Both the position numbers and the translations under genes were made by a program. Shown piece by piece: positions 10,975 to 61,451 of a stretch of DNA of 64,000 nt (position 1 is the stretch's first letter; the number at the start of each line of letters is the position of its first letter). The notes under the pieces are model-generated. The model searched no databases. It was not told the DNA's origin and saw only the letters and a program-made list of their open reading frames with translations. The stretch spans positions 21,576,001-21,640,000 of the forward strand of contig NW_026889774.1 of NCBI RefSeq assembly GCF_033153115.1, in the 5' to 3' direction. The DNA is from Saccostrea echinata. Its lineage: Eukaryota.

Positions 10975-11529
10975 ATGGTGCGAGATGTGATCGTTTGCGT
11001 GCTAATAGTTTTTGTCAATGTCTGCGGGAGTCTTAAGTGTAAGTCCCACACCGGGGAACCTGTTGATTGGTAAGGAAAACCATAACTTATTTAGTATATA
11101 TTTTTGCATATATGCTTTTTTGTTATCGTCGGAAATAACATTTAAAAATTAAAATCGGACTTTGCTGAAAGCCAGACCAGGAAACAAAAAAGTCCTTGAT
11201 TTGATATTCGACAACTTAAGGTTGAGAATATAAACACTTCCTTGAAATTTCTTAGTCTGACGCTGGTTTCCTTGGGGATTTTTTAAAAGTATTTTTATAA
11301 AATCTTAAGGTTTACATTTAAATTATTTTTAATAATAATAGCTTTGATTTCATTATAATGATCAGTGATGATTGCTAAGGAGTTTAATAAATCGATGCTC
11401 ACTCAGAATAATGTCAATATCTCATAATATGTCTTTTTTTTTTTAAAAAATAGTCTATCTTCAGATTTAAATTTAATATTTATGAATTAACCATCATTTT
11501 AACAGTTTCCACATATAATCTTTTGCATA

Positions 11530-11568
<39 letters not shown>

Positions 11569-14500
11569 ACAACGTTTTAATCTTGAATATTAGAAGATTT
11601 TCCATAGTATTGCACGTGTTCAGAAACAGAGGGACAAGATATTTTCAACTTTGTCAAAATTGAATTTGCAGACTACCATATATTTCATGTTGAAATCTGT
11701 GGCTGATAACTGCAGTGACACAATTTATTAAACTGACATTCATTCAGCGCTGTAAAATGATGTTAATGCTAACATATAACCTCCATGTAGATGTTCCCAA
11801 ATTTAAAAAAAAAACAAAACATCAACAGTGTAATCTACACATGACTATGACATAATGCGGACAGTGTATTGCATTATTGTTTTGTATTCTATTCTGTCAC
11901 ACATAAATTCATGCAGTTCAGTAACAATATTTTGAAGCACCCACTCGGATTTCGAAAGGTTTTGGAAACCAAACAGGAAAGTTCACATTAATCATAATTT
12001 ATTTTTGTACTTAAAATGGGGAAGTCACATGATGACAAGACTGTAATGAAATCCTTGAAAGTACAGTGCCCTCATCACACGAGAGATAAGACTAACCTAA
12101 ATTCTATATATTGTAACAACGTGAATCTCGTGTGTTACTTCATATCAAATAATAATTTGTATCTACATGTATGGTAGATTTTCCATTCTTCTTCAATGTA
12201 TATCTTGATAAAGGATTGACATGAAAATTATTCAAGATATGGTCTATTTTGTTGTCTATTTCTAACTTTCCATGTAACCTGTATCTTTACAAACAAAGAC
12301 ATGTTCCTTATTCAGGCCAAAACAAAATCATGAACTGAAGGAAAAACATTCTAAATTGTTTCCTCTCACTTCACCATAAAGAGATTTATGCTACATACAT
12401 GTACAACTGTGATACAAGTTTGGGTACTCTGTATATTTTGATTCGATTTCCATTGAGTACATGAAGTTCACTGTATAATTCCTGTAGGTTCACTGTTTAC
12501 AAGCTTCCAGAAATCCATGAAGTGGGAATAGACAAATGGTCTTATTATGGTGTCGGATTCTACTACATGGACTCCAATTCTCCAAGCTGGAAGTTGTCAT
12601 CTGTCCCATTCAACCAAACTGGACACTCCGTGGAGTACACACTGAGACAAATCTACAAGAATGTGAGTTAAGCCAACAGTAAAAAATAATTTGTTTGATG
12701 TACCCATCAAAATTGCCCCTACCCAATCAATATTTTTTCAGTACTTTTATTTTTGAATTTTCATTTCTAAGAAAATAAAGATCATCTGACTTGCTTTTTA
12801 ACATTAGATTCCATATTTTTTTAAAAAATTTTTTGTTTTGCTGCATTTTACAAACATCTTAACTATGAAGTGTAGGTAAGAATCTTAGAGGAATAAATGT
12901 GCAAATCTGTGATTTTCATAACATTTATCATTGTTTTAGATAATTCAAAAAATAAAAAAATCAACCCACCTACCCACCTTGAAAAATATGGGTTGGAGTA
13001 CATCAAACAAACAAAAAAGTTTAATGATGGCCTTACATATTCAGGTTCCCTGCTGTCATGAGAGAAAAAAGATTGTCATTTACAAAAAAAAAAAAATATA
13101 TGGAATCATATACATTTATCCATTTTGTTGTCATTAGAAATCTATGGCTACTTGACACAATTTATTTACCATGTGGGCAATGAAAGAAACATTATCAGCT
13201 GTGGTTTTATGATGATATCCATTTGAATGCAACAGTGATTTAGAAATTGCAATTTTGGATTATATGAAAGAATAAAAATATAATTCTTCTGATTTAATAA
13301 AAATTTAATGTTTTGTATTTGACAGACTACGAGTGAATACATGTATTCTATGTACAACGATCAGCCCCCGCAGGGACGTACATCTCTAAATCATGGACAC
13401 ACAAAAGGTACCAATCTCTGGTTGTCTTTCTTGATTCAACTTCTCAATATTTAATTTTATATCTTGAATAATATTATTATTATTTACTCATGTTAATTAT
13501 TTTCTTTCAGGGGTCTTTGCTTTTGATAAATCTGAGGGTTTCTGGTTGATTATGAGTATCCCTCATTTCCCGCCCCCTAGAAGTTTTGGGTTTTCGTACC
13601 CAGACAGTGGCGAAGTGTATGGACAGTCTATATTCTGTGTTAGTCTTCAATATTCTGCTATTGAGAGTGTTGGTAAGGTTTTTTTAATTAAACTTAGCTC
13701 TAACACAGTAGAAGAAAAAATGAGGTTATCTATTTTTTGTTTGTTTGTTTGTTTTTTTTTTTGGGGGGGGGGGGGGCCAAGATGTCTGAATAACAAGAAT
13801 TAATAAATTGTTGTATTCTTGATATTTCATTGATTATGTTATATACATTATACATATTTTATTATCATCTTGTTGAGGAATTCACAACAAAGAGAAGTAT
13901 TGCTCCTTTAAAATAGATAATGACACTATCTTTGAAATAATCTATTTCAAAAAAAAAAAATCCCTAGAAGATTAAAAAGAAAAACTTGAATTCATTCATC
14001 AGAAATTCATTCTTATTGAGTTGAATGATGACTTGATGAAATATTTATATTTTTATCTTGTTTTCAGCCAAGATAATGACCTTCACCTACCCCAAGTTTT
14101 ATGACCACTACTTGCCTCCCTCTTTCTCCTCTGAGAACCCCATCATGACGGGGGTTCTGTCAGGGAGCCAGAAACACGTGACATCCCCTCCATTTCAACT
14201 TGAAACTACACTCCATACCACAGATGGTGTGGTGCTACACAACTTTGCCAAGTCAAATGATTTTGAAAAAGGTAAGGCATGATGTTTTAAAATAATAAAC
14301 AATATTTAAAATTTCAAATTGATATACATGAGTATTTGGTAAAGTGCAGTTAATATTATAGTTCATGTCATTATTGAATCACTATATTTGTGGCATTTCC
14401 AGTGTTTAAAGATAGATTTTACCAAAGATAACAAAGCTGGAAAAGGGAAGGTGGCTTTGATTAAAGAATTTAAGAAATATGGTTCTTCTATGAAATTTAT

Positions 14501-58710: not shown

Positions 58711-59263
58711 CTTAAATATTTGATAAAGCAGTTGAAAATGAAAAGTTTCCACAAGGAATTGCTCTGGTATCCAAACTTGACGCAAGTAATGTTTGTTCAA
58801 AAACTTTTCCAAAGGTACTAAATCTTCTCTAGAATGAGATTAGCCTGAAAGACATTCATAATACCAACAAAAATGAACTTTAATTACACAAGAAATGATG
58901 TCTTGCTCTCTTTATTGGTCAATCACAAAGGGCTACGTCTTCAGCATCGACAGAAAATTTGCAAAGGACTTTGGTACTTTGGATATTCAAACAAAAGATC
59001 CACTTAGAATTTTTTGCGCATTTTTTCTTTTGGTTTCATTTTCCTCCAAATTTTTTCAATGGGCCTTAGACTATTTTTTCTTCCAAAGAGATCCTTTAAT
59101 AAAGGTGGAGTACTTTGTTTGGAAAATTTAATGTGTACTTTTATCGGTTAAAGGTAATGCAAATTTTTTTTCATTGTAAATGTTACATTCTAGGTTTCCA
59201 AGAGTTGCTTTCCTAAATTTGCTTTTATGCGACATTGATGTTTTACACTGATTTGATTTGAAC

Positions 59264-59676
59264 TAGGACTGTGTCAATATATCGAATATTCAATACTTAT
59301 CGATATTCAGGAATGTATCGTATCGAAAAAATAACTTCCAATACGTATCGGACAGGCAGTTTTCCTTATAATTCTGTCAAAATGTTGGGAATTTCAGTTA
59401 CCAAAGATTATTTTTAACTGTTTTGAATTAAAACTGGTCAATAATGAAATAAACATTAAGGAGATAGCACATCTTAAATAACTATTACAAAATACATAGA
59501 CAACTATATTTCAAAATGTTATGTTAGACTCACCCAGTTTTTATCAAATTTATGCATTAAATGTCATTTACAAGACATTTTTGAAAGACTTAATAAATAA
59601 TCCAATATATCGCATATCGCTTTATAAAATATCGTATCGTATCGTATCGAAATATTTTGCTCAATACACAGCCCTA
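59264..59676. mobile_element. hAT-type MITE
   Basis: TIR TAGG(A/G)CTGTGT, perfect 8-bp TSD ATTTGAAC (59256-59263, 59677-59684), (ATCGT)n subterminal repeats. Confidence 0.9.
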
Positions 59677-61451
59677 ATTTGAACATATTTTATTATGTAC
59701 TGAAACATAAATGGATTGGGCAGCAGGCATAGCCTATATAAGTCCTCTCCACTTTAATGTTTTACATTAATGCCTGTACACATATAGCATTTATTTTCCC
59801 AGAGGACATATTTAACATAACAGATCCAGATATATATGACCCAAAGCGAAGTCCTCGACGCCATTATTCACGTGTCACTTTGGTACCACATAAAATTTTC
59901 CCGATTTCAACGGTAAAAGGACAAAAGTTCCGATTCTTTGTAAAGTCTTCGATTTTTGGAAAGGGTGAGAACAGGCCAATTTTCATAATATAAGACAATT
60001 ATTTTTTTTTATTCAAAAAAATTGAAAATTTTAATTTTGTTAAAGATTTGTATGATGGACTTGTTGCACCTGAAATGAGGGAATCTCTTTACGTGCATAC
60101 ATGGCATCCAAACCTGAATTCAACTTGTAAAATGAAATTTAACTTAAAGGTTTGCATATTATTCATATATATACAAGTATTACAGTTATTCAAATTCTAG
60201 AATGAGAGTCTCACGTTTTGGGACAACGAAACACAAGCTTTAAAGCAATCAACTATTCTACTGAATTAATGTATTGCAGGTTATGAAGATTGAAGTAATC
60301 AAGTTTTCTAATGACATAGAGTTTAAGTCAAACACTGATCATTCAAAATGGACTGTATCTAAAGACAATTTCTGGGCGTGTGTTGGAGACATTAACAGAG
60401 CGGTAATTCTTTTCAGCATGTTTTGCCTACATTGTCTTAAAAATTATATAGATTTAAACATGATTGATCAAGACTAGTATAAAATTAGATACTGAAAGAA
60501 TTCAAGAATTGAATCACTGCGATTTGCAAGCATTTGACCAAGTAAATGAATCTGACCATAAATGTTCGGGAAAAAAAAAACTTCAGGTAAGCTGTCACTT
60601 CAAGTTTGATATGACTTATTGATTCCTTTTGGTATCTTTCACAGACATCCCAGTTCAAGAGAGGTGGCGGAACAATGTGTTTATCCAGTGACTCCGTATG
60701 GAACGCTTTTAACTCCCTAATCAAATCTGTGCAGAACTGTCCAAAAACATGTATAGAATCATTTGATTTGTCTTAATACATGTAATCATTTCACTGTTTA
60801 AAACGGCATTGGGATTGATGCGTGTAATCTTTTTTTCTGAATCTTTAAAAGTGAAAAAGGGTGTTTATCTCCGAGAGGCATTTTGAAACCAACTTCGAGG
60901 ATAAAATTTTGCATGATGGCTACACGGAGGGCTAGTGAAGAAATGAATGTTTGATCTTAATCGGGAAGAGTAAAGATAGTGTCGAATTTGACAAAAATAT
61001 TGTCCTGATCTTGCTCTTGCACAGAGCTATTAGAAGTTGTACACATGTAGTGCACTAAACTTGCAGGGTTAAAATCTCTCATGCTACTGTGGATAAATGT
61101 ACCGTAACTTCATACTAAGGATGGTAATCAGTGTGCAACCGATGAACCGGTTACTCGGTCAGAACGATGGTATCGCTAACCGATGAATAGGTTACTCGGT
61201 CAGAACGATGGCAATCGTTTGCAAATGGTGTAATCGGTTTACACTCAAACAAATTTTAATATGTGTATAATTGAACTCAATTATTTCATCAGCATATTAA
61301 TTTGAAATTCAATTTTAAAAGCTTTAAAAGTTAATGTTAACTAGTGTATTCAAATCTTATAAATCAATTTGGGGATTGAGATCGTTGGGGTAAAAGGTCA
61401 GAGTATATCTTTTATATGTGATGATGATGATGACAATACAGAATAAATATG

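Follow-up and report, generated by a model that had tools for sequence, protein, structure and literature searches.

A tandem DNase II array in the oyster Saccostrea echinata with a mutually exclusive exon pair and a probable pseudonuclease

The stretch of DNA analysed here, a window of 64,000 nucleotides (nt) from the oyster Saccostrea echinata (contig NW_026889774.1, positions 21,576,001 to 21,640,000), contains the first six genes of a tandem array of DNase II genes. This array is oyster-wide and dynamic, and it is neither a toxin cluster nor an artefact. In our reading, to which we give a probability of about 0.6, it is a birth-and-death array in which gene 1 would be the ancestral enzyme, accompanied by fast-changing duplicates that are likely active, and in which the type represented by genes 2 and 5 (type A) would be a DNA-binding pseudonuclease.

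Six gene bodies lie on the plus strand between 10975, the start of gene 1, and 60776, the stop of gene 6 (Table 1), as a preliminary description of this DNA had stated. However, the array totals eight members, since two further intact genes sit past the window end, and the six do not all work: gene 2 carries two stops and gene 6 lacks exon 1. With exon borders placed by splice sites and phases, genes 1-6 share the intron phases 2,0,1,1,1,0,0, and exon 5 measures 204 nt in gene 1, 177 nt in gene 4 and 162 nt in genes 2, 3, 5 and 6. Both features had been described before, as had a division into four types, which we reproduce with identities of 33-46% between types and 83-87% within type. The intact genes of the window (1, 3 and 5; 354, 338 and 347 residues) yielded models identical letter for letter to public S. 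echinata proteins, with Pfam DNase_II E values of 1e-110 to 6e-78; PF03265 matches positions 1-326 at 250-371 bits (cut-off 23) in both isoforms of gene 1, in genes 3 and 5 and in the public gene-4 model. Six cysteine positions common to Xenopus and starfish proteins are found in genes 1-5, 7 and 8, and five in gene 6 because its exon 1 is missing. Judged from a hydropathy window only, the putative secretory N-terminus (best 11-residue window) scores 2.1-3.2 in genes 1, 3, 4, 5 and 7 and 1.6-1.8 in genes 2 and 8; gene 6 has none. The isoelectric point (pI) is 5.6-7.3 for gene-1 orthologues and 8.1-9.9 for full-length duplicates. Further DNase II loci, six on C18 and one partial on C2, bring the S. 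echinata total to at least 15, a lower bound from a family search of its own 923 Mb genome.

Catalytic residues were said to diverge across the array. This is true of type 2/5, to which loss of an HxK histidine is confined, whereas types 1, B (genes 3/6) and C/D (genes 4/7/8) have both HxK motifs, with GHTK or AHMK plus DHSK or DHAK in genes 1, 3, 4, 6, 7 and 8. Pocket sites were mapped on PDB 5I3E through the type-A orthologue P0003, which folds as DNase II; indeed, the DNase II / phospholipase-D fold is kept in type A. In gene 5, Gln127 replaces the first catalytic His, and Phe257, Asp313 and Ala318 occupy other conserved pocket sites. Across seven type-A rows of the alignment, the first His is replaced in six (by Gln here, by Leu or Ile in other genera), the Trp has become Phe, Tyr or Leu in all seven, the Asn has become Asp in five, and the late Gln has given way to Ala or Ser in all seven. 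Both HxK lysines remain. Saccostrea and Ostrea retain the second His, which C. virginica, Magallana and a Logan relative lack. Among 205 family representatives (208 from three homologue searches, less three dropped by length), 199 keep the first His, in a set where His-less proteins are under-counted because it was chosen by similarity; the six exceptions are four type-A proteins, a faulty gene-4 model and one sea-urchin protein. Type A is conserved across genera at 57-62% identity, as against 52-61% for the intact types; 124 of 308 columns are invariant over its seven rows, and 15 of the invariant residues are private to the type.

In the available text of PMC5449587 the first His is the proposed nucleophile, the lysines hold the cut phosphate, and the Asn and Gln are likely DNA contacts. 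Type A should therefore not cut, as the residue that attacks the phosphate has been replaced: Gln, Leu or Ile at that site should stop cutting and leave the phosphate-gripping lysines in place. We consider it quite probable from the residues that type A is inactive as a nuclease, and three Trichinella proteins without typical centres are reported to be inactive (PMC11287892, in the part available). Type A would then bind DNA in its basic groove and leave it uncut, and might serve non-phagocytic blood cells as a DNA decoy, buffer or carrier in their secretory or lysosomal pathway; that DNA binding is its job is a tentative proposal, at somewhat less than even odds. Type 2/5 could instead still be an enzyme of altered chemistry or substrate, such as another phosphodiester, RNA, or weak nicking by the second His. 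Its two lysines, its second His in Saccostrea and Ostrea, a copy in S. cucullata with both histidines, and a fold common to phospholipase D enzymes of many substrates would agree with this. We nevertheless find it unlikely in view of the Crassostrea and Magallana copies that lack both histidines, of the need for both in human DNase II, and of the inactive Trichinella proteins.

Substitutions of this kind were also seen elsewhere. The partial gene on C2 (~26.853-26.857 Mb, L025/L026), for which exons 5 and 6 were looked for and not found, has Gln and Ser for both catalytic histidines, and a sea-urchin protein from Diadema (P0165/P0287) bears the same two substitutions, apparently independently. 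The C18 loci make up a second DNase II cluster (5.05-5.58 Mb, L010-L024) of at least six genes, at least two of them with stops. Several C18 genes (e.g. P0153), as well as P0092 of C. virginica, have long C-terminal tails rich in Lys and Arg, which, as a guess, could bind chromatin or target the nucleus.

The origin of the paired types is visible in the DNA itself. The collinearity of the stretch holding genes 2-3-4 with the one holding genes 5-6-7 spans introns and spacers, a block duplication absent from the preliminary description. Synonymous divergence (dS) is 0.21, 0.32 and 0.34 for the pairs 2/5, 3/6 and 4/7, and comparable introns of the pairs are 85% (seven introns) or 77% (four introns) identical. 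Genes 2-3-4 were almost certainly duplicated once, as a block, after which types A and B each had one copy broken, the two lying in separate blocks. Heterozygosity is high in oyster genomes and the block is an adjacent collinear repeat, as would be expected if two haplotypes had been assembled in tandem. However, this explanation of the extra copies, which the preliminary description had named as a possible refutation, has a negligible likelihood: mis-assembly is excluded because a single block duplication with dS of 0.21-0.34 is far from allelic, the introns are too divergent, RNA contigs agree with gene 1 to within 0-1 differences in each exon and show letters specific to gene 5, and the gene types exist in other genera.

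Purifying selection acts on the duplicate pairs, for which the ratio of nonsynonymous to synonymous divergence (dN/dS) is 0.31 (2/5), 0.30 (3/6) and 0.48 (4/7), with bootstrap intervals below 0.7. Pooled per-exon ratios are 0.30-0.56, and constraint is looser in exons 1, 3, 5 and 8. Neither the pairwise whole-gene nor the pooled-exon dN/dS, a simple method, gave a sign of positive selection. Thus, of the diversifying repertoire originally proposed, the diversified DNase II set stands and positive selection does not. Gene-family expansion is common in oysters. The duplicates might represent mostly neutral copy-number churn in a repeat-rich genome, with type A slowly decaying. Broken genes are consistent with this (two of eight here, at least two of six on C18), as is an array content that seems species-specific, with no type B among four consecutive Pacific-oyster DNase II models as inferred from lengths and best hits. 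Churn is nevertheless improbable given dN/dS intervals below 1, the invariant columns of type A, including those private to it, and the detection of type-A protein in blood cells.

To place these genes within the family we aligned 97 rows, comprising 13 S. echinata models and 84 rows from 82 proteins that were hand-picked for taxon spread, with one fused model split in three. A quick tree on all rows and two careful trees on 32 of them, one under a mixture model, agree. The oyster copies nest within molluscs, which answers the call of the preliminary description for a phylogeny with mollusc DNase II proteins; the nematode sequences, from Toxocara and Diploscapter, branch outside the molluscs. 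Gene 1 and its orthologues have short branches and cluster with the single DNase II found in the pearl oyster Pinctada (support 99/94), and gene 1 is likely the ancestral acid nuclease of the lysosome. The remaining oyster copies, at least 14 of them in S. echinata, form in these trees one fast-evolving, long-branched clade (100/100), divided into the lines A (2/5), B (3/6) and C/D (4/7/8), with the C18 genes. The test of whether the first duplication came before the divergence of the pearl oyster gave a borderline result (p 0.043). Types 3/6 and 4/7/8 probably comprise active nucleases that change fast and serve different cell types.

The array had been called plancitoxin-like, and could on that view be a defensive toxin set. 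We know of no venom organ in oysters. The idea draws on the many copies labelled 'plancitoxin-1-like' in databases, and plancitoxin is indeed a DNase II (PMC6410017, in the part available). Plancitoxin I of Acanthaster planci, the source of the label, also resembles the oyster proteins in having both HxK motifs. Unlike them it sits in the echinoderm clade, where the Acanthaster plancitoxins stay under the mixture model as well, and the oyster proteins lack toxicity evidence. Uniting the Acanthaster proteins with the oyster duplicates was rejected by the approximately unbiased (AU) test (p-AU 0.0037, 32 rows), and the same label is attached to beetle, wasp and sponge proteins. A toxin lineage is thus very improbable, and 'plancitoxin-like' labels in oyster annotations do not mark one.

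The neighbourhood of the array is shared between genera. In the Pacific oyster, one scaffold carries, in this order, a gene-1 orthologue, a gene of type A, another DNase II model and a gene of FKBP type (supplement of PMC6005338), matching the order in S. echinata, where an FKBP-domain gene lies ~12 kb beyond gene 8. The RefSeq accessions of C. virginica and O. edulis are near-consecutive and suggest this order there too. Public models join neighbouring DNase II genes into one protein in three other oysters (P0001, P0137, P0013, P0240; 543-1002 residues), probably through annotation merges, with read-through as the alternative.

Gene 1 itself contains a second exon 6, which the preliminary description lacked. 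The homologous exons 6a and 6b are a mutually exclusive pair, conserved in four oyster genera: inclusion or skipping of both gives an early stop at residue 288 or 254, and RefSeq has 6a and 6b forms in S. echinata, Magallana, C. virginica and O. edulis. Our two isoform models are identical to the public proteins P0122 and P0005, and 352-residue 6b proteins were found on Logan contigs of ~1.2 kb. Over the four genera 6b is invariant at 32 of 36 residues (mean identity 0.93) and 6a at 25 of 38 (0.78); exons 4, 5 and 7 have mean identities of 0.81, 0.82 and 0.91. For S. echinata, four runs covering 10900-29100, from at most three samples of two studies, were available as contigs only and were taken as RNA by a guess that their GT..AG joints support. 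All seven introns of gene 1 are joined GT..AG in these contigs, six in all four runs and the first in three. Exon 6 encodes one conserved Cys and a conserved Trp (mapped via PDB 5I3E), and this Trp is proposed to align the second HxK motif (PMC5449587, available text). Because of these two residues, an exchange of 6a for 6b would adjust the rim of the pocket, and with it substrate or pH preference. It is probable that the two forms differ in function. Magallana and Crassostrea orthologues of gene 1 also have two alternative first exons, giving up to four isoforms with 6a/6b (P0123/P0006, P0125/P0127, P0139/P0007); a second first exon was looked for in the S. echinata locus and not found.

Expression is not limited to gene 1, a possibility that had been raised against the array. 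Spliced contigs mapping to gene 2 in three of the four runs carry the gene-5 letter at all four exon-1 differences listed and at one junction, so the copy of type A that is transcribed is gene 5; a single short contig spans the 5′ end of gene 2 itself, as far as the first stop. For gene 3, one contig of 1232 nt ends in the last exon with no differences and an offset that fits exons 1-7 spliced, from which we infer a spliced transcript; no gene-3 joint was among the rows listed. In the Pacific oyster, the type-A orthologue, which lacks both histidines, is present as protein in blood cells (two unique peptides) and is lower in phagocytes, with mRNA at 15 versus 108 and a protein ratio of 0.49 (PMC6005338, supplementary data). 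In the available tables of a single-cell atlas (PMC12064177), the gene-1 orthologue is a marker of macrophage-like as well as vesicular cells, the latter also being marked by a neighbouring DNase II model, and the DNase II G12228 on another Pacific-oyster chromosome is a sharp marker of cluster 5 (42% of cells versus 0.3%). These blood-cell data lend some support to the immune setting that was suggested at the outset. Filter feeders eat much microbial DNA, and the extra copies might instead be mainly digestive, secreted in the digestive gland or gut to obtain phosphorus and nitrogen from food DNA, with blood-cell expression secondary. The hydrophobic N-termini and the basic pI of the full-length duplicates would suit this role. 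It leaves unexplained, however, a nucleophile-less copy kept in four genera, and the tissue data at hand put the paralogues in blood-cell types; we regard it as rather unlikely, if less so than an altered enzyme.

Several observations weigh against the birth-and-death reading or its parts. A third conserved His, 17 residues past the first, is absent from all 13 S. echinata rows, gene 1 included, and from all 28 oyster representatives with a residue there; it is present in 167 of 175 others. Three histidines are reportedly crucial in the pig enzyme. Because the third is missing, the activity of the copies treated here as active, gene 1 included, is presumptive; the case for gene 1 is helped in that the pearl-oyster protein lacks this His as well. 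The type-A copy of S. cucullata, with both histidines, fits poorly with an inactive type, and retention and regain of its His are indistinguishable (AU p=0.34). The change from Asn to Asp could weaken DNA binding by type A. A basic pI is also found in single-copy Pinctada (8.7) and Pecten (9.0). Among the rows listed for the four S. echinata runs only 6a is spliced (14269-15132 and 15244-16545 in every run) and no 6b joint occurs, so that for S. echinata the splicing of 6b is supported by the RefSeq model. The data on blood cells were obtained in another genus, the same type-A gene also appears in the sheet 'Increased' of PMC6005338 despite its lower phagocyte values, and the likely type-A gene is not among the cluster markers in the single-cell table of PMC12064177.

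The oyster genes can be compared with three known systems. Like animal lysosomal DNase II (DNase II alpha, PF03265; the reference structures 5I3E/5UNB are from Burkholderia thailandensis), they show a full-length Pfam match, the phospholipase-D fold, six cysteines, a hydrophobic N-terminus and, in types 1, B and C/D, two HxK motifs. They differ in occupying at least 15 loci rather than one or few, in the absence of the third His from all copies, in a type without the nucleophile and in the exon 6 switch of gene 1. The expansion in Trichinella spiralis (~125 genes) likewise combines one canonical enzyme with copies lacking catalytic histidines (PMC11287892, in the part available), and the parallel drawn in the preliminary description is apt in kind since such copies exist in both. 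In contrast, the oyster is a free-living filter feeder with ~15 copies, most with both HxK motifs, and its His-less type forms a single orthologous group that four genera have retained. We infer that the oyster expansion is independent, because the oyster clade nests in molluscs, in trees without Trichinella rows. PLD5 is a catalytically dead member of the phospholipase-D superfamily, from a different family, which has kept the fold with its HxK histidines replaced; it serves here as a working analogy only. DNase II pseudoenzymes are thus already known from Trichinella. The literature searched, which covered few subscription journals, yielded no report of a DNase II expansion in oysters, of an oyster DNase II without the His or of a mutually exclusive exon in a DNase II gene, and neither the His-less orthologue group, conserved and expressed, nor the conserved exon switch appears to have been described.

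The remaining genes of the window differ in their state and in their public models. The premature stops of gene 2 are codons 37 and 314, and the public model there is a 129-residue fragment (P0002). In gene 4, the first 17 bases of exon 4 are N in the window, where the search of the genome reports no stop, and a scan of the readable part found none. Its exon 3, with the AHMK motif typical of the type, matches exon 3 of gene 7 at 79%. The public gene-4 model P0149 swaps this exon for another piece and so lacks the first HxK motif; a short open reading frame (ORF) in intron 3 (35698-35859), partly used as exon 3 by P0149, has no Pfam match. A deletion in gene 6 has removed 97 bases of exon 1, the splice donor and the greater part of the hydrophobic N-terminal stretch among them, and no other exon 1 copy was found between gene 5 and exon 2 of gene 6.

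Other features surround the array. By the actin gene are two boxes at ~3487 and ~3613, which we take to be CArG- and CCAAT-like; the likeness of the second to the end of DNase II exon 1 is probably coincidental. Copies of an interspersed repeat of 200-350 bp, very deep in the RNA contigs, lie at 8208-8508, 20411-20609, 27440-27736, 37999-38347 and 53173-53516, and one has a tRNA-like head (Rfam tRNA, 33.8 bits, 53175-53247); the repeat is presumably a tRNA-derived short interspersed element. Tandem arrays of a 166-bp satellite occur at 38576-39631 and 57490-58250, within introns of genes 4 and 6 and in opposite orientation, with a diverged array at 51736-52990. Retroelement-like fragments were seen at 34527-35230 (+; frameshifts, stops, no Pfam match) and 62256-62780 (-; broken, Pfam RVT_1 match), and a single ORF of 988 codons (L007:3040-6003, plus strand) lies ~4-7 kb before the window start.

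Table 1. Positions of the array genes, exons of gene 1, block copies and upstream neighbour, in window numbering
Feature	Position	Strand	Remarks
Gene 1, conserved DNase II	10975..17366	+	354 residues with 6a, 352 with 6b; GHTK, DHSK
Gene 1 exons 1-5	10975-11069, 12488-12662, 13326-13407, 13511-13672, 14068-14271	+	splice-site model
Exon 6a, gene 1	15134..15246	+	113 nt; joints 14269-15132, 15244-16545 in 4/4 runs
Exon 6b, gene 1	16150..16256	+	107 nt; open, AG..GT, phases as 6a
Gene 1 exons 7, 8	16547-16666, 17253-17366	+	exon 6 is 6a or 6b
Gene 2, type A, broken	21015..23911	+	stops at 21123-21125, 23597-23599; first motif GQTK
Gene 3, type B, intact	25888..28990	+	338 residues; GHTK + DHSK; identical to P0008
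Gene 4, type C/D	31128..42091	+	375 residues; AHMK + DHAK; exon 3 at 33450-33570
Gene 5, type A, intact	47118..50176	+	347 residues; identical to P0286; likely pseudonuclease
Gene 6, type B, broken 5′	54788..60776	+	exons 2-8 open; GHTK + DHSK
Gene 7	~65.5-79.0 kb		intact, 360 residues
Gene 8	~83.5-90.6 kb		intact, 345 residues
Block copy 1 (genes 2-3-4)	20800..42100	+	20.8-42.1 kb; collinear 72-84% DNA matches to 46.8-79.0 kb
Block copy 2 (genes 5-6, gene 7 past window end)	46840..64000	+	collinear with copy 1
Actin gene, upstream of array	1030-3300	-	Pfam Actin E 1e-133

DNase II governs the amount of DNA that survives in lysosomes and outside cells, and hence the amount that reaches DNA sensors. 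A more far-reaching and doubtful reading is that oysters have a DNA-handling toolkit made of a conserved enzyme whose active-site rim is switched by mutually exclusive splicing, basic paralogues allotted to different blood-cell types, and a dead DNase II that acts as an innate-immune DNA sensor or decoy; if true, this would be a new role of the DNase II fold in a free-living animal, with the dead copy kept since the oyster genera split. For annotation, public models of the DNase II locus are partly wrong, being fused, truncated or without a catalytic exon. The pair 6a/6b is a natural exchange of the stretch that is proposed to place the second catalytic motif. Similarly, a conserved and expressed DNase II without its nucleophile is a natural test of a non-cutting role of the fold: Trichinella posed that question with ~125 copies, and the oyster narrows it to one orthologous gene in a farmed animal for which blood-cell atlases exist.

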